Shown here one piece after another: positions 10,354 to 40,057 of a DNA stretch of 64,000 nucleotides; the stretch's first letter is position 1; each line of letters starts with the position of its first letter. This DNA comes from Candidatus Cloacimonadales bacterium (lineage in GTDB: Bacteria > Cloacimonadota > Cloacimonadia > G963667145), in NCBI GenBank assembly GCA_965140615.1, contig OZ223280.1, positions 1,268,077 through 1,332,076 on the forward strand, read 5' to 3'. The notes under the pieces are model-generated. The model was not told the DNA's origin. It made no database searches and saw only the letters and a program-made list of their open reading frames with translations. The position numbers were made by a program, and so were the translations under genes.

Positions 10354-12708
10354 ATGAAAAGATTTATTAAGATTTTTATTATAATACTTTTTTCGCAAGG
10401 TATCTTGTGGTCGGCTGCTCAAAATGCACCTATCAACACCAAATTTGATAGCGAAGCGAAAAGGACAGCTTGGTGGAAAGGGCTGGAGTATCAGTGGAAG
10501 CTGACTTTCAATGAGCTACTGGGTAATGGGAAAACTGTCAAAAAGCCTAAAGATAGTTTTTTGCAAGGGCTACTAAAAAGAACTACGCTTTTTTTGTATG
10601 GGTATGGACTTACCAACATTAGTGGATTGTCTGAACTCGATCATCTGGAGAATATAAATTGTTCTTACAATAAAATCTCTAGCATAAAAGGTATAGAAAA
10701 TCTGGTAAACCTAAAGGAATTAAAGCTAAGCGACAATCGTATAACTTCTTTGCAACGCCTAAAAAACCTCAAAAAGCTGGAATATCTGCGAGCCGATTTT
10801 AACGACCTGCACGACCTTAAAGGGCTGGAGAATTTGCTTAATCTTAGGCGAGTGTATGTGAAGCGGAACTTTATCTCGTCGATCGAGCCTTTGGCGAATA
10901 AGCCTCTTTTGGAGGAGCTATCCATTAGCTACAACAAGATTGTCTCTTTGCAGCCGCTTCGCACTAGCACCAAGCTGAAGATTTTGCTGGTGCAACACAA
11001 TCTGCTGACGGACATCAAAGGGCTGGAAAGGCTGGTGAATTTGGAGCGAGTCTTCATCTTTAAGAACCGATTAACAAGCCTAGAGGGCGTGCAAAACCTC
11101 AAGAAGCTGAAAGTTTTTATGTTCTCGCAGGAGAGTGAAATTTTGCCTGAGGCAGAAAAGGAGAAAGTAAGGAAATTTTTTGCTCGAAAAAAGGCTTTTA
11201 GGTTTGGAATTGGTGGTGGATTGTTGGTGTTGTTTTGTTTAGCATTTTTTGGCTACATTTTGATAAACATTGCCAAGAGAGTAAAAAGACGCAAAGAACG
11301 AAGGAAAGAGTTTTTGCGGTTGCGGAAACTTTTTGAAAACCAAAAGGCGTCGTTTTTCGATAATAAAAAGCGACTTTACCAGTGGTGGAACAACTTGGAT
11401 GAGCAGTGGAAACGGATTTTTAATGTGCAACTGGACAACGGAAGCTCTTTGTTCTTTCCCCGAGAAGATGAGCTACGGATGCTGGTAAATAGTCGCTTTT
11501 TTAGGATGCGAGGCGACAATCTGACCAATCTTGGGGGACTGAGGAACTGCACAAAGTTGGAGCGACTTAGCTTTTACAACGAGGGTCCAAGATTTTTGAA
11601 GCTGTTTTCCGACTTAAACTTTTTAGCAAGATTTTCTGTCTTGAAGAAGATCGAGTTTTCCACAAGAGATGTGCAAAAAATCAAAAACTTTGCAAGGCTG
11701 GAAAAGATGTTCGAGATCGTAGTGCCAGCAAGCGAAATCCCTTATACTGCCAAGGGAAGTTTTATTGATGTATCTGATGATATACAAGTGCGTTATAAGT
11801 ATCCTATTGTGGCTATCGGCAACTTTGAGGGGTTGCACCTTGGGCATGCCAAGATACTCAATCGCCTCTACGCTAGAGCTGAGGACACAGGAGGAGAGGC
11901 TTTGGTGCTGACCTATAGAGTGCATACTCGGGAGCATTTCCTCAAGAAGGGGAACAAGCCAATAGCACCTTATATGATTTTGGAGAAAGATCACAAAGAG
12001 AACTTGCTATTTCATAAGTTTGGGGTGCACTCCATCTTGTATCTGGATTTTGAGAATCAGGTGGTAAACCTTACAGCCGAAGAGTTTTTTGAAGAGATTT
12101 TGATACGGAAGTTGCATATCAGGGAGATAGTTTGCGGACACGACACCAGATTTGGCAAAGATAGGAAGGGCGACTACAAGCTGTTGACAGAGCTGGCAAA
12201 GCCCTATGGGATACACATCCGCTTGGTAGATCCACTGATGATGGGTGATGAGATAGTATGTAGCAGATTGATCCGCCAGAAGATAGAAAATGGCGACATC
12301 AACGGGATTAAGCGGTATCTCTCGCGGAATTATTCGATAGTGGGTACTGTAGAGGCAGGGCGGAAGATTGGAGGGAAGCTGGGGTTTCCCACTCTGAACC
12401 TAGAGCCCAAGCAGGCATACAAGCTTTACCCAGCACAAGGGGTGTACATAACGCACACCAAGATAGGCAACAAGGGTTACTACGGTTTGACCAACATAGG
12501 GTTTGCCCCGACGGTGAGGCAAGATATTAAAAAGAAAACAATAGAAAATTACTTGCACAAATTTAGTGGTTCGCTTTATGGACAAGAGGTGAAAATCGTG
12601 TTTTTGCAGTATCTGCGGGGCGAGAAGAAGTTTGCCTCCAAAAGTGATTTGGTGCAACAGTTGAAAGAAGATTTGAAAATGCTAAAGCAATATATAAGGG
12701 TGCATTAG
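10354..12708 (+). CDS. ribF: Fusion protein: signal peptide, leucine-rich repeats, one TM helix, a second LRR-like module, and a C-terminal riboflavin kinase / FAD synthetase (RibF)
   Basis: N-terminal LRR units (LxxLxLxxNxIxxI). TM segment FGIGGGLLVLFCLAFFGYILINI followed by KRVKRRKERRKE. The C-terminal ~310 aa (YPIVAIGNFEGLHLGHAKIL ... GDINGIKRYL...PTLNLEP) is a canonical RibF. No stop codon occurs between the modules. Confidence 0.7.
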   Translation: MKRFIKIFIIILFSQGILWSAAQNAPINTKFDSEAKRTAWWKGLEYQWKLTFNELLGNGKTVKKPKDSFLQGLLKRTTLFLYGYGLTNISGLSELDHLENINCSYNKISSIKGIENLVNLKELKLSDNRITSLQRLKNLKKLEYLRADFNDLHDLKGLENLLNLRRVYVKRNFISSIEPLANKPLLEELSISYNKIVSLQPLRTSTKLKILLVQHNLLTDIKGLERLVNLERVFIFKNRLTSLEGVQNLKKLKVFMFSQESEILPEAEKEKVRKFFARKKAFRFGIGGGLLVLFCLAFFGYILINIAKRVKRRKERRKEFLRLRKLFENQKASFFDNKKRLYQWWNNLDEQWKRIFNVQLDNGSSLFFPREDELRMLVNSRFFRMRGDNLTNLGGLRNCTKLERLSFYNEGPRFLKLFSDLNFLARFSVLKKIEFSTRDVQKIKNFARLEKMFEIVVPASEIPYTAKGSFIDVSDDIQVRYKYPIVAIGNFEGLHLGHAKILNRLYARAEDTGGEALVLTYRVHTREHFLKKGNKPIAPYMILEKDHKENLLFHKFGVHSILYLDFENQVVNLTAEEFFEEILIRKLHIREIVCGHDTRFGKDRKGDYKLLTELAKPYGIHIRLVDPLMMGDEIVCSRLIRQKIENGDINGIKRYLSRNYSIVGTVEAGRKIGGKLGFPTLNLEPKQAYKLYPAQGVYITHTKIGNKGYYGLTNIGFAPTVRQDIKKKTIENYLHKFSGSLYGQEVKIVFLQYLRGEKKFASKSDLVQQLKEDLKMLKQYIRVH

Positions 12709-13074
12709 ATGAAAGTAAAAGAAATGTTGAAGTTGGTAGATGGCAAGCTATTGAGCGTGGATGCACATCTGGAGTACGATGTGTTTTTTGGTGTGGGTTC
12801 GGATCTTATTAGCGATATCTTGATGTGTGTGAAAGACTCCGCTGTGCTTTTCACGGGGCTTATTAACCATCAGATTATCCGAGTGGCAGAGATGGTGGAT
12901 ATGCAAGCCATTGTGTTTGTGCGGGGGAAAAAGCCGACGCAAGAGATGCTAGATTTGGCAAAGGAACACGATTTGCCTGTTTTATGTTCTAACTTGTCTT
13001 TGTATGAGGCTTGTGCTTTAGCGTATCAAGGTGGATTGAAACCTCTGCCGATAAAGGTTAGCATAGATGAATAG
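12709..13074 (+). CDS. DRTGG domain protein
   Basis: 121-aa ORF. Its sequence recurs as the C-terminal domain of the HydS-like protein at 13565-15172. Confidence 0.55.
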   Translation: MKVKEMLKLVDGKLLSVDAHLEYDVFFGVGSDLISDILMCVKDSAVLFTGLINHQIIRVAEMVDMQAIVFVRGKKPTQEMLDLAKEHDLPVLCSNLSLYEACALAYQGGLKPLPIKVSIDE

Positions 13075-13546
13075 GTTCGTCTATAGCAAAGATGCGGATG
13101 TAGATCCAGATGAGTTTTTGGCTGATTTGGGGCAACCTCCCATCAACTTTGAGTTCGATATAGAGCCCAAAGATTTCGTGGTGTCGGGCAAAGCTACAAC
13201 CAAGGTGAAGAAGTACCTAAAGGTGCTGGGCATAGACGCTGGCTCTTTGCGGAGGTTTGCCGTGGCTAGCTACGAGGCGGAGATAAATGTGGTGGCTCAC
13301 TCCAAGGGTGGCAAGATGATTAGTGGAATCTACCCGGAGTTTGTGCATCAGAAGTTCAGCGACGAAGGTCCGGGCATAGATGATATAGACAAGGCGATGC
13401 AGCCCGGCTACTCCACAGCGGACGAGCTGGCACGCTCTATGGGGTTTGGTGCTGGTATGGGCTTGCCAAATATTAAAGATAATGTGGACATTATGAGGCT
13501 TACATCACAGCAAAAAACGGTGATGGAGCTGGTGGTGTTTTTTTGA
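13067..13546 (+). CDS. Anti-sigma-factor-like serine kinase (RsbW/SpoIIAB-type HATPase)
   Basis: 159-aa ORF with an HATPase_c-like core (..EAEINVVAHSKGG...DEGPGID..GFGAGMGLP). Confidence 0.6.
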   Translation: MNRFVYSKDADVDPDEFLADLGQPPINFEFDIEPKDFVVSGKATTKVKKYLKVLGIDAGSLRRFAVASYEAEINVVAHSKGGKMISGIYPEFVHQKFSDEGPGIDDIDKAMQPGYSTADELARSMGFGAGMGLPNIKDNVDIMRLTSQQKTVMELVVFF

Positions 13547-13564: not shown

Positions 13565-15172
13565 ATGATGAGTAAAGGTTCTGTCCAAGAGGATAAAACA
13601 AAGTGCATCGGTTGCACCAGATGTGTGCGTGTCTGCCCTGTATCTGCCATTCGACTGCGAGATGGCAAGGTGGAGCGATATACGCAAAGGTGCATTAGCT
13701 GTGGGCAGTGTATCAAGGTTTGCCCAGTGGGTGCTATTCAGAGTGTTTATGATGATTTTGATCAGCTGCTGCAAGACTCAAGGTTTAAGTACCGCGTAGC
13801 TTTGTTGTCTAATGTGTTTATCGGGCAACTGCCCCCAAAAGTGGACTATAAGATGGCGACGGATGCTCTTTTGCGTTTGGGCTTCGATAGGGTGATAGAT
13901 GAGAATATGATCACCGGGGTGATGGCACCGATTTTTGCCAAGAAGCTCAATCAGGCGAAGATACGGCCATTGATTTCGTCCAATTGCCCTGCGATAGTCA
14001 GGCTCATAAGATTTAAGTATCCATCGCTGTTGCCGCACATCTTGCCTCTAGAGACCTCTGTGGAGATACTCAGCACTTACTATCGGCACTATCTAGCTCA
14101 GCAGATGGGGTGTAAACTGAAGGAGATCGGCATCTTTTTTGTAGCTCCTTGTTCTGCTCAGATTACGGCACAAAAAAGCCCTGTAGGCAGGAAGGAGTCT
14201 TCCTTGGACGGTGCTTTGGCGATGAAAGATATTTATAATCGGGTGCTGAATATTTGTTATAAGCAAAAGCATGAAGAGAAGAAAGAGGAGCAAGATAGCA
14301 AAAGCACGAAGCGGCACGAGAATTGGGGCATCTATGTTTCCGAAGGAAACCAGATAAAGAAAAGCAACTTTAAGACTTTAGCCGTCAGCGGGTTCAAGGG
14401 CACAAAAGATATTTTGACCAAGATAGAAGGTGGACAGCTAGATTTTTACGACTATGTGGTACTCCGCAGTTGCACGAACGGTTGTGTGGGTGGCGATTTG
14501 AATGCGGAGAACCCATTTATTGCTTCCAATCGGATAGCGTCGTCCGATGTTGTGTTCGAGAAGATAGATAAGGAGCTTTTTTACAAACTGTTTGAGCAAG
14601 GGGAGTTCGGATTGCGAGAGGCTCTTACTCCTGTGGCGTGCGATAAAGATAGTTTGTCTATAAAGGAAAAGATTGTTAAGATGAAAAAGTACAAAGATAT
14701 CCAAAAACTTTTGCCCGGGAAAGATTGCGGAATATGTGGCTGTCCTACTTGTGCAGATTTGGCTAAAGAGATAGTGGATGGCAACGCTAAGTTCTCCGAT
14801 TGCGTTTTTAATATGCAAGAGCAAAAGAAGGTATCGTTGCCCAAGATAATAGAGGCTATCGGGGGCAAGCTCTTGAGTCAGGAGAGAGATTTGTCGCAGA
14901 TGGAGGTAAGCAGTGTCTATGCGGGCGATTTGCTTTCGGATGTGATGGCTTCGGCTGGGGATTGCCAAGTGTGGGTAACGATAATGCAACACCAGAACAC
15001 GATAGCCGTGGCATCGCTTTTGGAGATAGAGGCGGTGATTTTTGCCAAAGACAAGAAGCCCGAGCAAAAGTTGATAGAGAAAGCTAACGAAGAAGGGATT
15101 GTGCTTATTAGCAGCTCACTTTCTTCTTTTCAGATTTCGGGGATATTGTACAAAATGGTGGTGGTAAAGTAG
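13565..15172 (+). CDS. Sensory-type [FeFe]-hydrogenase-like protein (HydS-like): 2x[4Fe-4S] ferredoxin N-terminus, an H-cluster domain with non-canonical motifs, an extra Cys cluster and a C-terminal DRTGG-like domain
   Basis: CIGCTRCVRVCP and CISCGQCIKVCP. L1-like SSNCPA (canonical TSCCPxW), L2-like APCSAQ (canonical MPCxxKxxE), L3-like SCTNGCVGG (canonical MACxxGCxxGGGQP). CGICGCPTC cluster. The C-terminus is similar to ORF 12709-13074. Confidence 0.65.
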   Translation: MMSKGSVQEDKTKCIGCTRCVRVCPVSAIRLRDGKVERYTQRCISCGQCIKVCPVGAIQSVYDDFDQLLQDSRFKYRVALLSNVFIGQLPPKVDYKMATDALLRLGFDRVIDENMITGVMAPIFAKKLNQAKIRPLISSNCPAIVRLIRFKYPSLLPHILPLETSVEILSTYYRHYLAQQMGCKLKEIGIFFVAPCSAQITAQKSPVGRKESSLDGALAMKDIYNRVLNICYKQKHEEKKEEQDSKSTKRHENWGIYVSEGNQIKKSNFKTLAVSGFKGTKDILTKIEGGQLDFYDYVVLRSCTNGCVGGDLNAENPFIASNRIASSDVVFEKIDKELFYKLFEQGEFGLREALTPVACDKDSLSIKEKIVKMKKYKDIQKLLPGKDCGICGCPTCADLAKEIVDGNAKFSDCVFNMQEQKKVSLPKIIEAIGGKLLSQERDLSQMEVSSVYAGDLLSDVMASAGDCQVWVTIMQHQNTIAVASLLEIEAVIFAKDKKPEQKLIEKANEEGIVLISSSLSSFQISGILYKMVVVK

Positions 15173-15889
15173 ATGAGGTGCAAAGCCGATCTGCATATGC
15201 ACTCTGTTTTATCGCCGTGTGGGGATTACTCTATGTCGCCTTCGCTTTTGTTTGAGAAGGCTGTGCAGAGTGGATTTCAGATGGTTTCTATCACAGAACA
15301 TAACAGTCTGGCAAATGCCAGAGCTTACGATAGCATCGCCAAAAAGTTCGGTATCCACTTTATCTATGGGGTGGAGATACAGACCAACTTGGAGGTGCAC
15401 CTTTTGGCTTATTTGCCAGATAAAGATGCGGCGGAAGCTTTTGATAAAGAGCTTTACCAGAGTTTGCCCGATATTCAAAACAAGAAAAATTTCTTTGGCG
15501 ACCAAGTGTTGATAAACGAAGATGAGATGGTGCTTGGTTTCGAGAATAGACTTTTGCTCAACTCTGTGTCGTGGGATTTGCGGACGACGGCGATCAAGGT
15601 GAAAAACTATGGAGGCTTGCTGGTGGCATCGCACATAGATGCCGATAGCTTTAGTATTAGCTCGCAATTGGGGTTTTTGCCCGAGGATATCCAGTTCGAA
15701 GCTCTGGAGGTGGTGGGCGACACTACGCCGTGGGTAAAGTACGATTTGCCTTTGGTCAAAAACTCTGACGCTCACTATCTGAAAGATTTTGGTAAGCGGT
15801 ACACGGAGTACCAGATGGACGAGATAGGGTTTGAGGGATTGAAAAATGCATTGCAAAAAAAGCAAATTGCGATAAAAAGTAGCGAATAG
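15173..15889 (+). CDS. PHP-domain phosphoesterase
   Basis: N-terminal DLHMHSVLSPCGD...ITEHN, a PHP metal-binding motif. Confidence 0.65.
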   Translation: MRCKADLHMHSVLSPCGDYSMSPSLLFEKAVQSGFQMVSITEHNSLANARAYDSIAKKFGIHFIYGVEIQTNLEVHLLAYLPDKDAAEAFDKELYQSLPDIQNKKNFFGDQVLINEDEMVLGFENRLLLNSVSWDLRTTAIKVKNYGGLLVASHIDADSFSISSQLGFLPEDIQFEALEVVGDTTPWVKYDLPLVKNSDAHYLKDFGKRYTEYQMDEIGFEGLKNALQKKQIAIKSSE

Positions 15890-15897
15890 GGGGAAAA

Positions 15898-16368
15898 GTG
15901 GTGAAATGTGAAAACGCACTTTACGATGAGCTGAAAAAGATAATCCAGACGAAGGCTGAGCTGAAAGATCCTTTGATTGAGATTTTGCGAGAGGCTCAAG
16001 AGTTGTTTGGTTATTTGCCCAAAGAGGTACAGATATTTGTTGCAGAACAGATGAATTTGCCAGTGAATAAAGTTTATGAAGTGGTAACTTTTTACAACTT
16101 TTTTTCTATGAAGCCTCGGGGGAAGTTTGTGATAAATGTTTGCACTGGGACAGCTTGCTATGTGAAGGGTGCTGCGAAAGTGATAGAGATGATAGAACAA
16201 GATTTGGGTATTCAGCTAGGGCAGACTAGCCCAGATGGCAAGTTTACGCTTTCTTCTGTGCGTTGCGTGGGAGCTTGTTCGCTAGCACCAGTGGTGGTTA
16301 TCGGGCAAGATACTTATGGCAAGGTCGTTAGCAAAGCACAGGTCAAAGAGATTTTAAGCAAATATTAG
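15898..16368 (+). CDS. NuoE/HndA-like [2Fe-2S] subunit (hydrogenase gamma subunit, HydC-like), copy 1
   Basis: Thioredoxin-like [2Fe-2S] cysteine pattern: VCTGTACYVKG ... CVGACSLAPVV. Confidence 0.8.
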   Translation: MVKCENALYDELKKIIQTKAELKDPLIEILREAQELFGYLPKEVQIFVAEQMNLPVNKVYEVVTFYNFFSMKPRGKFVINVCTGTACYVKGAAKVIEMIEQDLGIQLGQTSPDGKFTLSSVRCVGACSLAPVVVIGQDTYGKVVSKAQVKEILSKY

Positions 16369-16409
16369 TGAAAAGTAGATAAAATGAAACTGACGGAAGA
16401 CCCAAGGTT

Positions 16410-16955
16410 ATGCAAGACATATCTTTACATTTATTAGACATTTTGCAAAATTCCGTGAGTGCGGGTGCGTCGCTGATTGTCTGCCGATTTGTGAAGTCTG
16501 CGGGAGTTTTGCGAGTGTCTGTGCAGGACGATGGCAAAGGGATGGATGAGCAGACCTTGCAAGCTGCTCTAGACCCTTTTTACACTAGCAAGGTGCATCG
16601 CAAGAAGAAGGTCGGCTTGGGCATTCCGCTCTTTGCACAGAGTGCTAAGCTCTCGGGTGGCTCTTTTCAGATGCAATCTAGCGTTGGTAAAGGCACGCAA
16701 TTGGAGGCAAGCTTTGTCCTTTCCAGTATAGATGCCTTGCCACTGGGGGATATAGCTTTTAGCGTGCTTACCTGTGTTGTGTCGCATCCAGAGGTAGATT
16801 TTGTGGTGGAGAGTGTGGTGGAGCAAGAGAAAGATTATTTTGATACTCGTCTGATCAAAAAGGAGTTAGAGGGCGTGCCCTTGGATCAGCCAGAGATAAG
16901 AGCTTTTATAGAAGAGCTTCTTAACCAGCAGATAGTAAAATTGGAGGAAAGATGA
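16410..16955 (+). CDS. Histidine-kinase-like ATPase domain protein (HATPase_c only)
   Basis: ..VQDDGKGMDEQTL...GLGIPL.. The position between NuoE-like and NuoF-like genes matches HydABCD-type operons. Confidence 0.6.
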   Translation: MQDISLHLLDILQNSVSAGASLIVCRFVKSAGVLRVSVQDDGKGMDEQTLQAALDPFYTSKVHRKKKVGLGIPLFAQSAKLSGGSFQMQSSVGKGTQLEASFVLSSIDALPLGDIAFSVLTCVVSHPEVDFVVESVVEQEKDYFDTRLIKKELEGVPLDQPEIRAFIEELLNQQIVKLEER

Positions 16956-17305
16956 AGTCGTTAGCAGAGTTGAAAAAGTTGAAAGAAGAAGTTCAGAAAA
17001 AGATGAACTTGAGAAATTCGGATTATAAATATAAAATCGTGGTAGGTATGGGCACTTCTGGTATCGCGATGGGAGCTAGAGAAGTTATGAGAGCTTTTTT
17101 GGATGAAATATCCAAAAGAGATATTTCGGGAGTAGTGGTAACCCAGAGTGGTGAGAAAGGTGCCTCTAGTATGGAGCCTGTAGTGGATGTGTTGGAAAGG
17201 GATGGTAAGGTTGTTACTTATTGCCAGATGAGTGCCGAGAAGGCGAAAAAAGTTATCAGTGAGCATATTGTTAATGGAAATATTATTAGTGAATATTTGA
17301 TTTAG
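16952..17305 (+). CDS. Thioredoxin-like ferredoxin-fold protein (HndB/HydD-like), apparently cysteine-depleted
   Basis: 117 aa with only one Cys. GMGTSGIAMGA sits where the CxGxxC motif would be. Confidence 0.5.
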   Translation: MKSLAELKKLKEEVQKKMNLRNSDYKYKIVVGMGTSGIAMGAREVMRAFLDEISKRDISGVVVTQSGEKGASSMEPVVDVLERDGKVVTYCQMSAEKAKKVISEHIVNGNIISEYLI

Positions 17306-17314
17306 AAGGTTAGT

Positions 17315-19138
17315 ATGTTAAAAAGGATTGATGTTTTACTGTGTTTTGGTTCTGGATGTGTATCTGCTGGAGCCAAAAAAATTAAGGAAGAGCTCCAAAA
17401 TCAGGTCAAAGCTTATGATATAGATAGCGAGGTAAACATCATAGAAACAGGCTGTATGGGACCTTGCGATTATGGACCTTTGATGCTTATTTATCCAGAA
17501 GGTGTTTTTTATAAACAGTTGAAACCTGAAGATATGAAAGAGGTGGTGGAAGAGCATTTTGTAAAGGGCAGAATCGTGGAGCGTCTTTTGATGAAAGATG
17601 AATCTGTGTCTGCAAGGGCTATTCGCAATGTGGAAGATGTGCCTTTTTACCAGAACCAAACCAAGATAGCACTCAAGCATTGCGGCTATGTAGATCCTGA
17701 GTCGCTGGAGGAGTATGTGGCTGTGGATGGCTACGCTGCTTTGGGGAAGGTATTAGAGGAGATGTCGCCCGATGAGGTGATAAAGCAGATAGCCATCTCG
17801 GGCTTGCGAGGTAGAGGAGGTGGGGGTTTTCCCACGCACCTCAAGTGGAAGTTTGCTAGAGCTGCCAGTAGCGACGATGGCGTAAAGTATATGATATGCA
17901 ACGGCGATGAGGGAGATCCGGGAGCTTTTATGGATAGGTCGCTTTTGGAAGGCGATCCGCATAAAGTACTGGAAGGAATGATGATAGCTGCTTATGCAGT
18001 GGGAGCTTGTGAGGGATTTTTTTATATTAGAGCGGAGTATCCTTTAGCTATTCAAAGAATAAAATTGGCTATCGAAAAAGCTAGAGAATTTGGGCTTTTG
18101 GGCGACAACATTTTAGGAAGTAATTTTTGTTTTGATATAGAGGTGCGTACTGGTGCAGGTGCTTTTGTGTGTGGAGAGGAAACAGCTTTGATTTCTTCTA
18201 TTGAGGGTAAGAGGGGTCATCCTAAACCAAAGCCCCCTTTCCCTGCTAACAAGGGACTCTGGGGCAAACCGACGAATATTAACAATGTGGAGACTTTTGC
18301 TAATGTTCCGTCCATCATTTTGAAAGGTGGCGATTGGTTTGCGTCGATGGGCACTAAAACCAGCAAAGGCACAAAGGTGTTTGCCCTGACTGGCGATGTG
18401 AAGAACACTGGGCTGGTGGAGGTGCCGATGGGCATCACTATCGGTGAGTTGATAGGTAAAGTGGGTGGTGGTATGAGTGATGGTCAGTTCAAGGCTGTAC
18501 AGCTGGGTGGACCCTCTGGCGGTTGCCTGACCAAAGAGCACTGGGATGTGCCGATAGATTACGACTCGTTGGTGGCTGAGGGTGCTATGATGGGTTCTGG
18601 TGGTGTGATAGTGATGAATGAAGGGAAATGTATGGTCAATGTTGCTAAATTTTTCTTGGAGTTCTCTTTGGAAGAGTCTTGTGGTAAGTGCTCCCCTTGT
18701 CGCATTGGTCTGAAGCATATGCACAATATCTTGGAGAAGATTACCGCTGGCAAGGGTACTATGGAAGATATTGTGGAGCTAGAAAAGGTTGGGGATGTGG
18801 TAAAGCGTACTTCGTTGTGCGGATTGGGGCAAACCGCTCCAAATCCTGTACTTTCTACTCTGAAATATTTCCGTAATGAATACAAAGAGCATATCGAAGA
18901 GAAAAAATGTTCGTCTCTTGTTTGCCAAGACCTTTTGCATTTTAGGATAGATAAAGCTAAATGTGTGGGGTGTTCGTTGTGTGCGAAAAAGTGTCCCACC
19001 GCTTGCATCGAAGGCTCTCGTGATGAGAAATTCACCATTTTACAAGCTGAGTGTATTAAGTGTGGGAGCTGCTTAGAGGTTTGCCCAGTGAATGCTGTGG
19101 CAAAGTTGCCGGGAAAATGGGAAGAAGAAACAATATAG
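17315..19138 (+). CDS. NuoF/HndC-like NADH-binding flavoprotein subunit (HydB-like). N-terminal Trx-like [2Fe-2S] domain and two C-terminal [4Fe-4S] ferredoxin motifs.
   Basis: GLRGRGGGGFPT, CNGDEGDPGAF, ESCGKCSPCRIG. C-terminal CVGCSLCAKKCP and CIKCGSCLEVCP. Confidence 0.88.
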   Translation: MLKRIDVLLCFGSGCVSAGAKKIKEELQNQVKAYDIDSEVNIIETGCMGPCDYGPLMLIYPEGVFYKQLKPEDMKEVVEEHFVKGRIVERLLMKDESVSARAIRNVEDVPFYQNQTKIALKHCGYVDPESLEEYVAVDGYAALGKVLEEMSPDEVIKQIAISGLRGRGGGGFPTHLKWKFARAASSDDGVKYMICNGDEGDPGAFMDRSLLEGDPHKVLEGMMIAAYAVGACEGFFYIRAEYPLAIQRIKLAIEKAREFGLLGDNILGSNFCFDIEVRTGAGAFVCGEETALISSIEGKRGHPKPKPPFPANKGLWGKPTNINNVETFANVPSIILKGGDWFASMGTKTSKGTKVFALTGDVKNTGLVEVPMGITIGELIGKVGGGMSDGQFKAVQLGGPSGGCLTKEHWDVPIDYDSLVAEGAMMGSGGVIVMNEGKCMVNVAKFFLEFSLEESCGKCSPCRIGLKHMHNILEKITAGKGTMEDIVELEKVGDVVKRTSLCGLGQTAPNPVLSTLKYFRNEYKEHIEEKKCSSLVCQDLLHFRIDKAKCVGCSLCAKKCPTACIEGSRDEKFTILQAECIKCGSCLEVCPVNAVAKLPGKWEEETI

Positions 19139-19167
19139 ATTTGAAGTTGTAAAACGAAAAGGAGGTT

Positions 19168-19608
19168 GTGTTGACTAATTTTGATAAATATCTACCAAAA
19201 CCAGAGAATATTTTACAGTTGTTGCATATGGCACAGGGTGCTAGTCCTTTGCAATACTTGAGCAAAGAAGCACTGATGGAGGTGGCGGAATATTTGAAAA
19301 TGCCTTATAATCAGGTTTATTCTGTGGCGAGTTTTTACTCTATGTTTTCTTTGAAACCCAGAAGTAAATTTGTAATTAAGGTTTGTCAGTCGCCACATTG
19401 TGTGGTGCAAGGGTCGGATAATCTTTTGGATTATTTGCAAAAAGAGACCAAGAAGATGAACGATGTGAGCCTAGAGGCTTGCCAGTGTTTGGGTGTGTGT
19501 GGCAACGCTCCTGTGGTGCTGGTCAACGACAAGGTTTACGGCAATATGACACTGGAGAAGCTGGAAGGATTGCTGCAAAACCTCAAGGAGGGTGAAAATG
19601 TTTTATAG
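19168..19608 (+). CDS. NuoE-like [2Fe-2S] subunit, copy 2
   Basis: KVCQSPHCVVQG ... CQCLGVCGNAPVV. Confidence 0.8.
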   Translation: MLTNFDKYLPKPENILQLLHMAQGASPLQYLSKEALMEVAEYLKMPYNQVYSVASFYSMFSLKPRSKFVIKVCQSPHCVVQGSDNLLDYLQKETKKMNDVSLEACQCLGVCGNAPVVLVNDKVYGNMTLEKLEGLLQNLKEGENVL

Positions 19609-21163
19609 ATCGCATATACTTTTTGTGGTGGACGATCACTCTCTGGGCAAAGGCGTGAAAGCGGTGATAAAAGCTATGAGGGACGAGCTGGCAAAAAACG
19701 GATTGGACAAAGAGGTGGGCGTGTTGGAGACGGGAACTTTGGGGTACATTTCCAAAGGAGTGCATTTCTTGGTATATCCTGATAACCTTTTGTATCACGA
19801 TGTTATGGCGGATGATGTCCCTTTTATAGTGCAAGAGCATTTCTTAAAAGGGCGACCTGTGAAACGCTTGTGCCAAGAGGCGAAGCAAGAGGTTGATTTG
19901 GCTTACTCTCAGCGGATTGTGCTGAAGAACTCTGGCAAGATAGACCCCGAGTCTATCGATGAGTATATTGCTGTGGATGGTTATCAGTCGCTGGGTAAAG
20001 CTTTGCAAATGGGTAAAGACGCTGTGTTGCAAGAGATAAAAATCTCTAAGTTGCGTGGTCGTGGAGGTGCAGGATTTCCAGCAGGAATTAAGCTGGAGAT
20101 GACAGCCAAGCAAAAAGAGAAGCAAAAGTATATTGTGGTGAACGCCGACGAGGGCGAGGCTGGGACTTTTAAAGATAGATTGATAATGGAAGGAGATCCG
20201 CATAAGTTGTTGGAAGGGATGATGATAGCGGGTTTTGTGGCAGGTGCGGATACGGGCTACATCTACATCAGAGGCGAGTATCAGCTGTGCATTAGCAGGC
20301 TAAAGAAAGCTATCAGGCAAGCCAAGGAGTATGGACTGGTGGGCAAAGATATTTTCGGTAGTGGTTTTAACTTTGATGTGGTGGTGAAAGTTGGGGCAGG
20401 GGCGTATGTCTGTGGTGAAGAGACGGCATTGTTGAACTCTTTGGAAGGTGGCAGAGGTAATCCTCGTTCTAAACCGCCTTACCCTGGTGTGAGTGGACTC
20501 TGGGGGAAACCGACGGTGGTGAATAATGTGGAGACTCTTTCTAATATGCCAGCTATTGTAGAAAAGGGTGGGGAATGGTTTGCAAGCATAGGGACTCCAG
20601 AATCTTGTGGTACGAAGGTTTATACGATTTTGGGAGATGTGAACAATCCTGGCTTGATTGAGGTACCTATGGGTACAACTTTGTCGGAGATTATTCTTAA
20701 ATATGGCGGTGGACTGAAAGAGGATGAGCGTTTTAAAGCGGCACTAGTAGGCGGGGCTGCTGGGATGTTTTTGCCTAGAGAGCTTTTACAGATTAAGCTA
20801 GATTATGAAAATTTGTCTAAAGAGTCGGCTGTGCTTGGTTCGGGAGCTATTTTGATTTTGAACGAGCGGACTAATATGCTCAATGTTTTGCGTTCGATTT
20901 TGAATTTTTTCTTGCACGAATCTTGCGGTAAATGTAGTCCTTGTCGAATTGGTTGTAAAGTACTGGTAAATATTATGGATAAGATAATTGCTGGTCAAGC
21001 AGATGCGGACGATGTGCAGAAGTTACTGAGTGTGTCTGAAGTGATGCAAAAAACATCTTTTTGTGCTTTGGGTCAATCTCCTGTGATGCCCATAGCGAGC
21101 ATGGTCAAGTACTTTGGAGATGAGTTTGAAAAGTTTATAGGAGAGGAGAAAAAATGCAAATAA
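19592..21163 (+). CDS. NuoF-like flavoprotein subunit, copy 2. Cys-less Trx-like N-terminus and no C-terminal ferredoxin domain.
   Basis: KLRGRGGAGFPAG, VNADEGEAGTF, ESCGKCSPCRIG. Ends shortly after the [4Fe-4S] N3-type motif. Confidence 0.85.
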   Translation: MKMFYRSHILFVVDDHSLGKGVKAVIKAMRDELAKNGLDKEVGVLETGTLGYISKGVHFLVYPDNLLYHDVMADDVPFIVQEHFLKGRPVKRLCQEAKQEVDLAYSQRIVLKNSGKIDPESIDEYIAVDGYQSLGKALQMGKDAVLQEIKISKLRGRGGAGFPAGIKLEMTAKQKEKQKYIVVNADEGEAGTFKDRLIMEGDPHKLLEGMMIAGFVAGADTGYIYIRGEYQLCISRLKKAIRQAKEYGLVGKDIFGSGFNFDVVVKVGAGAYVCGEETALLNSLEGGRGNPRSKPPYPGVSGLWGKPTVVNNVETLSNMPAIVEKGGEWFASIGTPESCGTKVYTILGDVNNPGLIEVPMGTTLSEIILKYGGGLKEDERFKAALVGGAAGMFLPRELLQIKLDYENLSKESAVLGSGAILILNERTNMLNVLRSILNFFLHESCGKCSPCRIGCKVLVNIMDKIIAGQADADDVQKLLSVSEVMQKTSFCALGQSPVMPIASMVKYFGDEFEKFIGEEKKCK

Positions 21164-22902
21164 CAGTTAATGGAAAAAAGATTGAAGCTAAGTCGGGTCA
21201 GACGATAATGGAAGCTGTCCGCGATGGCGGGTTCTATATCCCTAGCTTGTGCTATCACAAAGATTTGACTCCTACTGGTAATTGTGGAGTGTGTGTGGTG
21301 CAGATAGAGGGGATGGCAGCTCTGAAGAGGGCGTGTGTTACTCTTGTGGCAGATGGGATGTCCATCGTTACAGACTCTCCAGAGATAAGAAAGGTTCGCA
21401 AAGAGCTTTTGTCTTTGATATTGTTGGATCACGATGTGAAATGCCCGACTTGCGATCAAAACGGCAAGTGCGAATTGCAGGAGCTGATAAATTATATGGA
21501 CATACCAGAGTCGGACTACGAGCCGATATTTACCAAAGCTAAGGTGGACAATCTGGGTCCATCCATCGTCAAAGATACTACCAAGTGCATCCACTGTGGG
21601 CGGTGTATCACCGTGTGTAACGACATCCAAGCCGTACATGCCCTGTGTGTGGGTGGCAGAGGGTTTGATAGTGTGGTAACAGCCGCTTTTGGTTCTTCTT
21701 TGGTGGATAGTCCTTGTGTGAACTGCGGGCAGTGCACGGTGTATTGCCCAGTGGGAGCACTCAAAGAGAAAACGGAGATAGAGCAGGTGCAAGAGGCTTT
21801 GTTCGACCCAAGCAAGATTGTAGTGGTGCAAGAAGCTCCATCTGTACGGACAGCACTGGGAGAGGAGTTTGGGATGGATGCCACGGAAGTTACTGTGGGC
21901 AAGATGTATGCGGCTTTGCGTAAGTTGGGCTTCGATAGAGTGTTCGATACTAACTTCGCAGCAGATTTGACAATAATGGAAGAGGGCTCAGAGCTTATCC
22001 AGAGGATAAAAGAGGGCGGTACTTTGCCGCTTATTACTTCTTGTTCTCCCGGCTGGGTGAAGTTTGTGGAGACCTATTTCCCCGATTTTCTTCCTAATGT
22101 CTCTAGTTGCAAATCGCCACAACAGATGTTTGGAGCGATGGTCAAAACCTATTTTGCCAAGCAGGAAGGCATCGACCCCAAAGATATTGTGAGCGTGTCT
22201 ATTATGCCGTGCACAGCCAAGAAGTTTGAAGCCAAGCGACCAGAGATGAACTCCTCGGGCTATCAAGATGTCGATTGCGTGCTGACAGTTAGAGAGTTCA
22301 TTAAGATGATTAAAGGTGCTAAGCTAGATTTTAAAAATTTGCCAGAAGAGAAAGCCGACCAGCTAATGGGACAATATACAGGAGCAGGCACTATCTTCGG
22401 TGCTACAGGTGGAGTGATGGAGGCTGCTATCCGCACAGCGTACGCTATCCTTGCTGGCAAGGAGCTAGACAATCTGAATGTGGAAGCGGTGCGTGGGATG
22501 CAAGGTATCAAGGAAGCGAGCTTGGACATCCCCTTGAAGGATAGCTCGACGGTCTTGAAGGTCAATGTCGCCGTAGTACACGGGCTGGGCAATGCCAAGA
22601 GGCTATTGGAAGATGTAAGAGCGGGTAAGAGGTCTTACCACTTCATCGAGATAATGGCGTGCCCTGGAGGATGTGTGGGCGGTGGTGGACAGCCGTACGG
22701 CTCAGATATTGCCGATCGTGCCAGAAGGGGCGAGTCTCTTTACAAAGAGGACAGTAAGTGCGAATACAGGGCGTCTCACACCAATCCGATGATTAAGAAG
22801 ATTTACGCTGAGTTCTTGGGCGAACCGCTCTCGCACAAGTCGCACCAGTACCTGCACACTAGCTACAAGCCAAGAAATAAGGTAACAGGCAAGCAAGATT
22901 AG
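21154..22902 (+). CDS. hydA: [FeFe] hydrogenase catalytic subunit (HydA/HndD-like) with a [2Fe-2S] N-terminus, [4Fe-4S] F-clusters and the H-cluster
   Basis: N-terminal 2Fe-2S Cys motif. CIHCGRCITVC and CVNCGQCTVYCP. H-cluster L2 MPCTAKKFE and L3 EIMACPGGCVGGGGQP. L1 reads ITSCSPGWV (canonical TSCCPxW). Confidence 0.88.
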   Translation: MQITVNGKKIEAKSGQTIMEAVRDGGFYIPSLCYHKDLTPTGNCGVCVVQIEGMAALKRACVTLVADGMSIVTDSPEIRKVRKELLSLILLDHDVKCPTCDQNGKCELQELINYMDIPESDYEPIFTKAKVDNLGPSIVKDTTKCIHCGRCITVCNDIQAVHALCVGGRGFDSVVTAAFGSSLVDSPCVNCGQCTVYCPVGALKEKTEIEQVQEALFDPSKIVVVQEAPSVRTALGEEFGMDATEVTVGKMYAALRKLGFDRVFDTNFAADLTIMEEGSELIQRIKEGGTLPLITSCSPGWVKFVETYFPDFLPNVSSCKSPQQMFGAMVKTYFAKQEGIDPKDIVSVSIMPCTAKKFEAKRPEMNSSGYQDVDCVLTVREFIKMIKGAKLDFKNLPEEKADQLMGQYTGAGTIFGATGGVMEAAIRTAYAILAGKELDNLNVEAVRGMQGIKEASLDIPLKDSSTVLKVNVAVVHGLGNAKRLLEDVRAGKRSYHFIEIMACPGGCVGGGGQPYGSDIADRARRGESLYKEDSKCEYRASHTNPMIKKIYAEFLGEPLSHKSHQYLHTSYKPRNKVTGKQD

Positions 22903-23001: not shown

Positions 23002-23535
23002 ATGAAAATTTGTGTTTATTGTGCTTCGGCAGAGAATATCGCTCTGGAGTACAAGAAAGCGGCTCGCCAGCTGGGCGAGCAGATGGTGGAGCGTGGGAAT
23101 AGCCTTGTGTATGGTGGTGGTGCTGTGGGGCTGATGGGTGAGCTCGCTAGGAGTGTTGCGGCAAATGGAGGCTACACTCTGGGGGTGATACCGCACAAGC
23201 TGAAAAATTTGGAGTTGGCTTACAAAGGTGCTAGCCAGATGATTTTCACGGAAAATATGCGGATACGCAAATCTGTGATGCAAGACAACGCCGATGGCTT
23301 CATCGCCTTGGCTGGGGGCTTTGGCACTCTGGAGGAGGTCTTTGAGATGATAACCCTGCGGAAATTGGGTTACCATCACAAGCCGATTGTGCTCTTGAAC
23401 ACGGCTGGGTTTTACGACAAACTTTTGGAGTTTATCGACTCTATCATCCAGAAGAAATTTTCCACAGACGAGAAACTTTTTTCCGTGGTAACCACCCCTG
23501 AGCAAGCGTTAGTGGAGCTAGAGGCAAAAGCGTGA
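23002..23535 (+). CDS. LOG-family protein (cytokinin riboside 5'-monophosphate phosphoribohydrolase-like, TIGR00730)
   Basis: VYGGGAVGLMG and ALAGGFGTLEE motifs. Confidence 0.8.
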   Translation: MKICVYCASAENIALEYKKAARQLGEQMVERGNSLVYGGGAVGLMGELARSVAANGGYTLGVIPHKLKNLELAYKGASQMIFTENMRIRKSVMQDNADGFIALAGGFGTLEEVFEMITLRKLGYHHKPIVLLNTAGFYDKLLEFIDSIIQKKFSTDEKLFSVVTTPEQALVELEAKA

Positions 23536-37875: not shown

Positions 37876-38969
37876 TCAAGATGTTTTTGTCGTCTTTCTG
37901 GGCGGTACACAGTAAAAGTATCCACCCTTATTTATTTTTTCTATATCTTTTAAATAATAATCTGTGATTATTGGGCTAATGTTCAAAACATTAAAATTGG
38001 GCTTCCTAGAATTTTCCCGCAAAATTTGCTTCGGAGTCTTACCTTTTCGCCCTCTGTTTCCTCTAAAATGATTAAAATACAGCGTATAACTGTGTGCTTT
38101 ACGCACAAAATCGTTGCAATCATCAAATTCATCAATCAGATAAAACTCGTCCTCTACCAGCCGATGAGCACTTTCAACATCAGAATTAAAAGTGGGCGAA
38201 CCTTTGGGGATAAGCGAATGATTAGCACCATTTATTTGCACACTTTTTTGAAAAAAGCTCAAACCCTTTTTCTTGGGACTCACAAACTCTGAGCCATTGT
38301 CGGTTTGAAAAGTAACTTTGGAAAGATCAACACCACAACTCTTTAATCTTTTAGACAAAAAATCGATATAAATCCCTGCATTTACGGCTGTTTTCTCATA
38401 GCAATAACCGATGAATTGCATACCAGTTTTGTAGTCTCTAGCAGTGATTTGATAGCGAGGATAATTTTTGTACTTAATCCCCTCAAACAATTCTGGCATA
38501 TCGGTCAAATACTTAATATCCACTTGGATTTTTTCAAAAGGTTTTGCCCTAGCTCGCATTTCACTTAAATCTTTGCGTTGCTGATATTTCCGTTTCTTTT
38601 TCTTTACCAAACCAGCATCACAGAGCTTTTTATGAACAGTCGAAGCTGAACAATTTAACTGCAAATGGTCAATAATTCGCCTAGCTCCCCAGCGATTTTT
38701 TGCCTTTTTGCGACAAACTACTATTTCCTCTATTATCTCAGATTTTAAGCGATTTGGGAAATTTTGCTTTTTTCGAGATTTATTAACCAGACCATCCTCG
38801 CCCTTTTCTTTATAGGCTTTGACCCACTTTCGCACAGTTTTTCTAGTGGTCTCAAATTCTCTAGCTGCAGCGGAAATAGATGTTTCATTTGCAAATTTCA
38901 CCAAATTTTTCCGATAAAATTTCTTGTCTTTTCTACTCATAATTTTCAAATTGTCTATATATTTTTTCA
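37876..38969 (-). CDS. DDE transposase (copy B); ORF terminates in flanking DNA ~50 bp upstream of parA
   Basis: MKKYIDNLKIMS... nearly identical to copies A and C. The C-terminal tail ...VPPRKTTKTS is flank-encoded. Confidence 0.75.
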
Positions 38970-38975
38970 TAATGG
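37899..38975 (-). mobile_element. IS copy B (older copy), body from the right end to its own start codon. Its left end, 40198-40355, has been displaced by insertion of copy C.
   Basis: Right end GTGTACCGCCCA (reverse complement at 37899-37910). The body is co-linear with copies A and C and is interrupted immediately upstream of its ATG. Confidence 0.7.
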
Positions 38976-40057
38976 TTGGGCGGTACACAGTAAAAGTATC
39001 CACCCTTATTTATTTTTTCTATATCTTTTAAATAATAATCTGTGATTATTGGGCTAATGTTCAAAACATTAAAATTGGGCTTCCTAGAATTTTCCCGCAA
39101 AATTTGCTTCGGAGTCTTACCTTTTCGCCCTCTGTTTCCTCTAAAATGATTAAAATACAGCGTATAACTGTGTGCTTTACGCACAAAATCGTTGCAATCA
39201 TCAAATTCATCAATCAGATAAAACTCGTCCTCTACCAGCCGATGAGCACTTTCAACATCAGAATTAAAAGTGGGCGAACCTTTGGGGATAAGCGAATGAT
39301 TAGCACCATTTATTTGCACACTTTTTTGAAAAAAGCTCAAACCCTTTTTCTTGGGACTCACAAACTCTGAGCCATTGTCGGTCTGAAAAGTAACTTTGGA
39401 AAGATCAACACCACAACTCTTTAATCTTTTAGACAAAAAATCGATATAAATCCCTGCATTTACGGATGTTTTCTCATAGCAATAACCGATAAATTGCATG
39501 CCAGTTTTGTAGTCTCTAGCAGTGATTTGATAGCGAGGATAATTTTTGTACTTAATCCCCTCAAACAACTCTGGCATATCGGTCAAATACTTAATATCCA
39601 CTTGGATTTTTTCAAAAGGTTTTGCCCTAGCTCGCATTTCACTTAAATCTTTGCGTTGCTGATATTTCCGTTTCTTTTTCTTTACCAAACCAGCATCACA
39701 GAGCTTTTTATGAACAGTCGAAGCTGAACAATTTAACTGCAAATGGTCAATAATTCGCCTAGCTCCCCAGCGGTTTTTTGCCTTTTTGCGACAAACTACT
39801 ATTTCCTCTATTATCTCAGATTTCAAGCGATTTGGGAAATTTTGCTCTTTTCGAGATTTATTAACCAGACCATCCTCGCCCTTTTCTTTATAGGCTTTGA
39901 CCCACTTTCGCACAGTTTTTCTAGTGGTCTCAAATTCTCTAGCTGCAGCGGAAATAGATGTTTCATTTGCAAATTTCACCAAATTTTTCCGATAAAATTT
40001 CTTGTCTTTTCTACTCATAATTTTCAAATTGTCTATATATTTGTTCATAATGGTCAA
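38933..40057 (-). CDS. DDE transposase (copy C); ORF reads through the IS end into copy B sequence
   Basis: MTIMNKYIDNL... 374 aa. The C-terminal tail ...VPPNHYEKIYRQFENYE is encoded by copy B DNA. Confidence 0.8.
   Translation of the reverse strand: MTIMNKYIDNLKIMSRKDKKFYRKNLVKFANETSISAAAREFETTRKTVRKWVKAYKEKGEDGLVNKSRKEQNFPNRLKSEIIEEIVVCRKKAKNRWGARRIIDHLQLNCSASTVHKKLCDAGLVKKKKRKYQQRKDLSEMRARAKPFEKIQVDIKYLTDMPELFEGIKYKNYPRYQITARDYKTGMQFIGYCYEKTSVNAGIYIDFLSKRLKSCGVDLSKVTFQTDNGSEFVSPKKKGLSFFQKSVQINGANHSLIPKGSPTFNSDVESAHRLVEDEFYLIDEFDDCNDFVRKAHSYTLYFNHFRGNRGRKGKTPKQILRENSRKPNFNVLNISPIITDYYLKDIEKINKGGYFYCVPPNHYEKIYRQFENYE

Follow-up and report, generated by a model that had tools for sequence, protein, structure and literature searches.

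Can one [FeFe]-hydrogenase catalytic subunit serve two different modules that oxidize NADH (reduced nicotinamide adenine dinucleotide)? An operon of a Candidatus Cloacimonadales bacterium raises this question. It lies in a stretch of 64,000 nucleotides from assembly GCA_965140615.1 (contig OZ223280.1, positions 1,268,077 to 1,332,076 of the forward strand), which we call the window and from whose first letter all coordinates are counted. An earlier note, made from the sequence of the window alone, had described a HydABCD-type hydrogenase operon with an extra NuoE/NuoF pair inserted before hydA. All seven plus-strand open reading frames (ORFs) were found where it had placed them, in the order NuoE1, histidine kinase (HK)-like ATPase, HydD-like protein, NuoF1, NuoE2, NuoF2 and HydA. 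Pfam supports their domains, and with them the description of the operon. Signatures and phylogeny indicate that the two pairs are of different types, one bifurcating and the other non-bifurcating, and we weigh below how they might share a single HydA.

Two types of NuoEF module beside one hydA

Losey et al. 2020 (PMC7311640) distinguish bifurcating and non-bifurcating NADH-dependent beta subunits by several criteria. In bifurcating subunits, the NADH site is marked by A/E and M and the flavin mononucleotide (FMN) site by F; GGPSG stands in the SLBB domain, and there are extra Fe-S clusters. In non-bifurcating subunits, the corresponding residues are T/S with K/S/A at the first site and Y at the second, GGPSG is missing, and the Fe-S clusters are fewer. 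NuoF1 agrees with the bifurcating type throughout: it reads GAFMDR at the NADH site, GAFVCGEE at the FMN site and GGPSGGC in the SLBB domain. Its domains are an N-terminal thioredoxin (Trx)-like domain, Complex1_51K, SLBB, NADH_4Fe-4S and a C-terminal Fer4 dicluster domain. All extra clusters have their motifs (CFGSGC...GCMGPC, CVGCSLCAKKCP, CIKCGSCLEVCP and KKCSSLVC), comprising a four-Cys motif at the N terminus, a Cys pair (CxxxxC) after the N3 domain and two CxxCxxCxxxCP motifs; the Pfam families 2Fe-2S_thioredx and Fer4_21 cover the N-terminal [2Fe-2S] and C-terminal 2x[4Fe-4S] regions. In the PDB, it scores highest against two chains of bifurcating HydB, 7t2r_B (854 bits) and 7q4v_B (811 bits), the latter from Acetobacterium woodii HydABCD (7q4v/7q4w/8a5e). 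NuoE1, NuoF1 and HydA also fit the BfuCBA definition (Schut 2022; Zheng & Huang 2024). By its motifs, module 1 (NuoE1 and NuoF1 with the HydD-like protein) appears to be a complete bifurcating/confurcating core of the BfuBC type, and NuoF1 would couple ferredoxin to NAD.

NuoF2 agrees just as fully with the non-bifurcating type, with GTFKDR at the NADH site, GAYVCGEE at the FMN site, GGAAG in place of GGPSG, and no extra clusters. Its Pfam domains are Complex1_51K, SLBB and NADH_4Fe-4S only. There is no Cys among residues 1-90, and the chain ends just after the N3 domain, at EEKKCK, so that the earlier note was right to describe a NuoF lacking both the N-terminal [2Fe-2S] cysteines and the C-terminal 2x[4Fe-4S] domain. 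Since NuoF2 has neither the bifurcating signature nor the extra Fe-S sites of a BfuB/HydB, we did not assign it as a bifurcating HydB. Across 118 sequences of the NuoF2 family, the FMN, NADH and N3 motifs and the T, K, Y and GGAAG residues are invariant; the N-terminal domain is conserved as well, yet without a conserved Cys cluster. The Candidatus Cloacimonas orthologue YP_001741249 (520 aa; T, K, Y, GGAAG) is tabulated as non-bifurcating by Losey et al. (PMC7311640). NuoE2 is conserved in all related loci, and the Cx4C...Cx3C [2Fe-2S] motif is present in both NuoE1 and NuoE2. Judged on these features, NuoE2 and NuoF2 constitute a real, conserved module that is probably of the non-bifurcating, NADH-only type, and NuoF2 is predicted to pass electrons from NADH towards H2 without ferredoxin.

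Which known proteins does NuoF2 resemble? With the Syntrophomonas-type non-bifurcating enzyme it shares the T/K/Y residues and the lack of GGPSG and of extra Fe-S clusters, and a Syntrophomonas zehnderi homologue (locus L014 of our set) has the same NuoE-NuoF-HydA order and a TSCSPGW motif. It differs from the Syntrophomonas-type beta subunit (~407 aa, without such a domain) in keeping a Cys-less, Trx-like N-terminal domain of ~95 residues, in a core identity of only ~51%, and in sharing its operon with a full bifurcating module. In the AlphaFold (AF2) model of NuoF2 (mean predicted local distance difference test score, pLDDT, 75.6), residues 7-90 have the order beta-alpha-beta-beta-beta-alpha, a topology that we read as Trx-like in the model. 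Foldseek gives full-length alignments of the model with HydB chains and with Cupriavidus necator FdsB, in the latter case over 511 columns with a template-modeling (TM) score of 0.73-0.75. FdsB belongs to FdsABG (C. necator 6vw7, Rhodobacter capsulatus 6tg9). Its length is near that of NuoF2 (520 aa for 6vw7_B, 523 aa for NuoF2), and phmmer aligns NuoF2 residues 14-512 to residues 12-510 of 6vw7_B, N-terminal region included. The N-terminal domain of FdsB is likewise Trx-like and cluster-free. However, NuoF2 scores lower against FdsB (375 bits) than against HydB-type chains (511-541 bits), and FdsB has a molybdenum formate dehydrogenase, not HydA, as its partner; yet NuoF2-like proteins do adjoin a formate dehydrogenase subunit, FdhA, at two loci (L059 and L123). 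NuoF2 also resembles the cluster-depleted BfuB of Bfu sub-type II, which lacks clusters B3-B5.

The earlier note had called the NuoE/NuoF pair duplicated. A second pair is indeed present; it is no recent duplicate. Identity is 47% between NuoF1 and NuoF2 and 35% between NuoE1 and NuoE2. In neighbor-joining trees of the NuoF core region (200 bootstrap replicates; the larger tree holds 67 sequences), the NuoF1 and NuoF2 clades of Cloacimonadota each had 100% support and were sisters in 0 of 200 replicates. NuoF1 fell among the GGPSG-type sequences and NuoF2 outside them. These trees have poor backbone support (7-58% in the 67-sequence tree, 35-60% for comparable groupings in the smaller one), and the grouping of NuoF2 with the S. 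zehnderi type reached 35% in the smaller tree and was not recovered in the larger. A recent tandem duplication is ruled out by the identities and the tree. We conclude from signatures and phylogeny that the pairs most plausibly represent anciently diverged module types, bifurcating and non-bifurcating.

Perhaps the second pair is nonetheless a functionless relic in decay, or the duplication and the unusual serine codon of hydA (below) are sequencing or assembly artefacts? The N-terminal cluster cysteines and the whole C-terminal ferredoxin domain have, after all, been lost from NuoF2. Against this stand the divergence of the pairs and the failure of the NuoF copies to group as sisters, the invariance of the catalytic motifs and the conserved N-terminal domain in the 118 homologues, and ORFs that are unbroken in each of the independent assemblies. 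The window's gene order and L1 motif recur in Cloacimonadota chromosomes (L004-L007), Candidatus Cloacimonas (L001-L003) and metagenome assemblies (L063-L065, L071, L077), and hence the operon is neither a chance arrangement nor an assembly artefact. The closest genomes are complete metagenome-assembled Cloacimonadota chromosomes of ~1.56-1.59 Mb with NuoF2 identities of 75-91%. They keep the entire arrangement of 11-12 genes, as does Candidatus Cloacimonas at ~58% identity. Both modules are intact and co-diverging, the NuoF1 and NuoF2 trees mirroring each other across loci that hold the two. According to a published table of the pangenome, 91-100% of Cloacimonadota genomes from four habitat groups have the nuoE and nuoF orthologue groups. 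A contig scan with single-protein, lineage-specific peptides returned four close Cloacimonadota genomes and scattered NuoF, FdsB and complex-I loci, and is no measure of the taxonomic range of the dual arrangement. We also sought subunit-level expression in the supplements of Calusinska 2026 and found there only presence tables of KEGG orthology (KO) groups.

One otherwise syntenic chromosome (L006, OY781092.1) has NuoF1 split into ORFs of 149 aa and 474 aa, which is either a frameshift, and thus a possible pseudogene, or a long-read sequencing error.

The L1 serine of HydA and the cysteine-poor HydD-like protein

The domains of HydA in Pfam are Fer2_4, NADH-G_4Fe-4S_3, Fer4_Nqo3, Fer4, Fe_hyd_lg_C (E=3e-102) and Fe_hyd_SSU. 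It has the NuoG-like N-terminal F-domain, with an HxxxCxxCxxxxxC motif at residue 93. The H-cluster motifs L2 (MPCTAKKFE) and L3 (EIMACPGGCVGG) are canonical. L1 lies in the context ITSCSPGWV, with positions 22035-22055 reading act tct tgt tct ccc ggc tgg (TSCSPGW). By its architecture and its L1-L3 ligand motifs, we assign HydA as the catalytic subunit (HydA/BfuA, M3 architecture) of a group A3 [FeFe] hydrogenase.

The earlier note had placed this Ser at the position of a [4Fe-4S] ligand of the H-cluster and took it as a sign of a non-standard enzyme. Its alignment was right, but the feature is already documented, because Cys299 of Thermoanaerobacter kivui, the corresponding ligand, is reported as Ser301 in A. 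woodii in a cryo-EM study (PMC10021017). The Ser does not appear to affect the Fourier-transform infrared (FTIR) signature, and the enzymes of T. kivui and A. woodii are both active (PMC10021017). A. woodii HydA1 is also the closest solved structure to our HydA (7q4v_A; 7q4v/8a5e), which it matches over its full length (E=2e-187, 627 bits, ~55-60% similarity) and with an identical ITSCSPGW. The Ser therefore does not mark a non-standard hydrogenase: A. woodii HydA1 has this motif together with a normal FTIR signature and activity. From this similarity we infer H2 turnover with a typical H-cluster. In HydA, as in A. woodii, one of the Cys ligands of the [4Fe-4S] subcluster would be replaced by Ser.

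How common is the variant? Among the 150 best 50%-identity cluster representatives, L1 was TSCCP in 104 and TSCSP in 18, with no readable motif in 22 (Ser thus in 18 of 122 readable L1 motifs), and all six representatives closest to HydA had TSCSP. In the loci that we retrieved, a hydA located after a bifurcating-type NuoF encodes TSCSP in 24 cases and TSCCP in 13; after a non-bifurcating NuoF it encodes TSCSP in all cases (18/18). The Ser is reported as common in group A3, and in a survey of Hydrogenedentota BfuA four of the five sub-types commonly have it (PMC11406978); a TSCSP-type motif was recorded in Melainabacteria in 2013 (PMC3787301), and the Bfu surveys call Ser at L1 position 5 common. 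Could the TCT codon still be a miscalled TGT, as the earlier note allowed? Every orthologue has Ser here, and each of the six Ser codons occurs at the site across 52 related genes, which excludes a sequencing error. We conclude that the Ser is a known, harmless natural variant. Together with the solved, active enzyme that carries the same motif, the codon usage completes the case against decay or artefact, a reading that we regard as already refuted and whose probability we put close to nil.

The single Cys of the HydD-like protein had been counted as a second sign of altered cofactor content. The count was correct, and an alignment of orthologues shows a Cys-less family in which this one Cys lies at a non-conserved site. 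The protein cannot bind a cluster. This is no mark of a non-standard enzyme either, as A. woodii HydD is also predicted to be cofactor-free. The HydD-like protein is an ordinary accessory of such operons, as is the HK-like ATPase, whose HATPase_c gene is present in many other bifurcating operons and whose counterpart in A. mobile is reported to lie outside the holoenzyme.

Partners of the single HydA

The A. woodii gene order, which we take to be hydC-hydE-hydD-hydB-hydA, agrees with NuoE, HK-like ATPase, HydD, NuoF and HydA in the window. The window differs in that NuoE2 and NuoF2 separate hydB from hydA and that a HydS/kinase/PHP regulator block lies upstream. What, then, do two modules do with one HydA? 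Both normally have a HydA of their own, and this HydA carries no extra domain (582 aa, compared with 583 aa in A. woodii HydA1). For these reasons, the simplest reading is that one cytoplasmic group A3 HydA is shared by two alternative NADH-dehydrogenase modules. We think it probable, though by no means assured, that HydA protomers carry either module, and that H2 is thereby produced both from ferredoxin plus NADH and from NADH only, by one operon. Each module would dock on the NuoG-like N-terminal domain of HydA, as in the solved HydABC structures. Protomers with module 1 would be confurcating, making H2 from NADH and reduced ferredoxin. Module 2, a stripped-down complex-I-like NuoEF with only FMN, an N3-type [4Fe-4S] cluster and the NuoE [2Fe-2S] cluster, would pass electrons from NADH to HydA without ferredoxin, like Syntrophomonas wolfei Hyd1ABC and Syntrophus aciditrophicus HydAB. 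That reaction would be feasible only at the very low H2 pressure kept by a syntrophic partner. A purified non-bifurcating HydAB is reported to have made H2 from NADH only until the partial pressure reached 2.2-40.2 Pa, and the authors argue that such enzymes need continual removal of H2 by a partner. The two kinds of protomer could be separate enzymes or be mixed in one oligomer. A syntroph with a small genome might thus dispose of NADH alone, or of NADH with reduced ferredoxin, through a single operon.

Variant loci bear on whether each module can work alone with a HydA. Short operons of the order HydD-NuoE2-NuoF2-HydA, without a bifurcating NuoF, occur in L060 (Candidatus Zophobacter), L061 and L062, which suggests that module 2 and HydA can stand alone. 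At four other loci (L028, Melioribacteraceae; L081; L099; L127), two full sets are neighbors, and each has a HydA to itself. The HydA beside the bifurcating NuoF has TSCCPGW in L028 and L099, where its counterpart beside the non-bifurcating NuoF reads TSCSPGW; both are TSCSPGW in L081 and L127. These loci may represent a precursor state of the arrangement with a single HydA.

Perhaps HydA pairs only with NuoE2 and NuoF2, as a purely NADH-dependent enzyme, with NuoE1, NuoF1 and HydD serving the HydS-like protein encoded upstream, an enzyme elsewhere, or redox sensing? Translational overlaps join only NuoE2, NuoF2 and HydA (17 nt between the end of NuoE2 and the start of NuoF2, and 10 nt between the NuoF2 stop and HydA), and the Cloacimonas enzyme has been read as NADH-only in the literature. 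However, HydA is coupled to NuoEF by a NuoG-like N-terminal domain that the HydS-like protein does not have, and no reaction is known for a bifurcating BfuBC core that is left without a third redox partner. Moreover, in dozens of loci NuoE, HATPase, HydD and bifurcating NuoF are followed directly by HydA with no second module, and hence HydA is the normal partner of the bifurcating block. We consider an exclusively NADH-dependent HydA quite unlikely.

An obligate supercomplex is the main alternative. Both modules would be permanent parts of one enzyme, for example as a mixed (A-B1C1)(A-B2C2) oligomer or with module 2 giving a bifurcating core an additional port for NAD(P)H, and the NADH:ferredoxin stoichiometry would be non-canonical or variable. 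The seven genes are tightly spaced in one cluster, which suggests equimolar synthesis, and the mirrored trees of the two NuoF types across dual loci also fit this proposal. So does the retention of the pair while its catalytic partner changes. In L059 (Candidatus Tenebribacter burtonii, JAVCCF010000136.1, 2935-5625), bifurcating NuoF, NuoE2 and NuoF2 are followed by FdhA instead of HydA; this FdhA contains an in-frame TGA for selenocysteine (motif CARL-U-HSS), and genes for FocA, MobA and FdhD come next. L123 likewise ends in FdhA. In L070 (1726-10739), the dual flavoprotein set precedes a NuoG-like subunit of 611 aa and the small and large subunits of a [NiFe] hydrogenase; its bifurcating-type NuoF is a 1023-aa protein with a GltD-like Fer4_20/Pyr_redox_2 fusion. 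Finally, L082 (5679-10605) and L096 (5718-10599) hold both modules, in the order NuoE-HydD-NuoF(bifurcating)-NuoE-NuoF(non-bifurcating), with no adjoining catalytic gene; genes for an SLT-domain protein, an alpha-amylase and an EamA transporter lie downstream.

Three observations speak against an obligate supercomplex. HydA has a canonical NuoG-like docking domain only. Relatives with two HydA genes keep the two sets apart. Dual and short operons are interleaved inside one NuoF2 clade with 97% support, and L060-L062, which are closely related Cloacimonadota-level lineages, have no module 1; module 2 and HydA therefore appear to work without it. We regard the supercomplex as possible but rather unlikely. 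In a broader form of this idea, which we put forward only tentatively as slightly less probable still, bifurcating and non-bifurcating NuoEF would make up an obligate "dual-flavoprotein" scaffold on a single catalytic subunit, portable among [FeFe] hydrogenase, [NiFe] hydrogenase and formate dehydrogenase. If true, it would imply a ferredoxin:NADH ratio that shifts with H2 pressure, or an extra nucleotide port, and a Bfu-type enzyme class not yet described biochemically.

Several points also weigh against our preferred reading, in which HydA accepts either module. With one hydA in the operon, about two flavoprotein modules should be made for every docking site on HydA, a surprising excess if they do no more than compete for it. 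The cluster is tightly packed, with no obvious transcriptional switch between the modules, and a promoter and terminator scan of 12-24 kb was uninformative: counts were ~2-2.6 standard deviations above shuffles, no site fell at an internal operon boundary, and the sigma-70 consensus may not hold for this phylum. The criteria of Losey et al. are correlative and are based on two characterized non-bifurcating enzymes, from both of which the conserved N-terminal domain of NuoF2 is absent. The partner-less loci L082 and L096 hint that the modules might work with each other. For our part, the binding of either module to HydA, their ratio, the reactions catalyzed and a physiological switch between them are all predicted from sequence.

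Gene neighborhood and implications for Cloacimonadota

A conserved block of putative sensor and regulator genes precedes the hydrogenase genes (Table 1). Its first gene, for a DRTGG-domain protein, is syntenic in L001-L007 and in many operons that are bifurcating only. The second gene product may be a small kinase-like protein. The third, the HydS-like protein, has 2x[4Fe-4S], an H-domain, an "FeS" domain and a C-terminal DRTGG domain. Its L1 motif is SSNCP where TSCCP is usual, which retains the cluster-ligand Cys and has another residue in place of the proton-relay Cys. The DRTGG domain is fused in the lineage of the window; Candidatus Cloacimonas has separate genes for 433 aa and 113 aa (L001, 1800-3443).

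Table 1. Genes of the hydrogenase operon and of the regulator block upstream, with the basis of each assignment
Feature	Coordinates	Strand	Basis and remarks
DRTGG-domain protein	12709..13074	+	weak Pfam DRTGG; first gene of the conserved sensor/regulator block
159-aa protein, regulator block	13067..13546	+	no Pfam match; same position in Cloacimonadota and other loci
HydS-like putative sensory [FeFe]-hydrogenase homologue	13565..15172	+	Pfam Fer4, Fe_hyd_lg_C (4e-26), FeS, DRTGG
PHP-family phosphoesterase, regulator block	15173..15889	+	Pfam PHP, PHP_C; synteny with relatives
NuoE1/HydC, [2Fe-2S] subunit of bifurcating-type module	15898..16368	+	Pfam 2Fe-2S_thioredx (PF01257), E=3e-50; four Cys
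HK-like ATPase, HydE/HisK-like accessory gene of tetrameric-type operons	16410..16955	+	Pfam HATPase_c
HydD-like protein, 117 aa, cofactor-free	16952..17305	+	no Pfam match; one Cys, non-conserved position
NuoF1/HydB, bifurcating type, 607 aa	17315..19138	+	Pfam; PDB matches; signatures; tree
NuoE2, [2Fe-2S] subunit of non-bifurcating-type module	19168..19608	+	Pfam 2Fe-2S_thioredx (PF01257), E=5e-39; four Cys
NuoF2, HydB of non-bifurcating type, 523 aa	19592..21163	+	Pfam; signatures; tree; AF2 model and Foldseek; database copy starts at 19598, two codons after the window ORF start
HydA, group A3 (M3-type) [FeFe]-hydrogenase catalytic subunit, 582 aa	21154..22902	+	Pfam; PDB match; L1-L3

Upstream of this block, positions 10354-12708 of the plus strand encode a 784-aa protein in which N-terminal leucine-rich repeats are joined to a bifunctional flavin adenine dinucleotide (FAD) synthetase/riboflavin kinase (RibF). 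Its reading frame stops immediately before the DRTGG gene begins, and an FMN-making enzyme thus lies directly upstream of an operon with two FMN flavoproteins. Directly 3' of hydA is a LOG-family (Lysine_decarbox/SLOG) gene (23002-23535, plus strand), whose position is kept in L004, L006 and L007. GC skew is positive in 31 of 32 2-kb bins of the window regardless of gene strand, the exception being 38001-40000 at -0.188.

How does the operon compare with what has been written about these bacteria? Reviews of Cloacimonadota describe a tetrameric bifurcating hydrogenase of the group A3/Hnd type (PMC8542988, PMC12590816), and other papers hold that Cloacimonadota depend exclusively on an NADH-dependent, ferredoxin-independent enzyme. 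Each of these readings is half right, since the operon has NADH modules of both kinds. We found no description of a dual bifurcating/non-bifurcating NuoF operon in the open-access literature, where absence is not proof that it is undescribed. Schut 2022 and Zheng & Huang 2024 describe one BfuB/BfuC per gene cluster, and in the sections searched a complete and a cluster-depleted BfuB sharing one BfuA were not found. The benign L1 Ser and the ordinary, cofactor-poor HydD were already known, and a Ser-for-Cys exchange in L1 is by itself a poor ground for flagging an [FeFe] hydrogenase as defective. We conclude that the co-residence of two module types with one hydA is an under-described variant of a known enzyme family and not a new kind of system.

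The operon type is nonetheless recurrent, combining a complete bifurcating core, a stripped NuoEF and one catalytic subunit, with [NiFe] or formate dehydrogenase variants. Such dual-module operons offer a natural system for asking which features let NuoEF bifurcate, and the operon in the window merits a biochemical test. Cloacimonadota are key syntrophic degraders of propionate and amino acids in anaerobic digesters. If one HydA does serve both modules, metabolic models of these organisms would have to allow for an altered balance of ferredoxin and NADH, in which, for example, no further sink for reduced ferredoxin may be needed.

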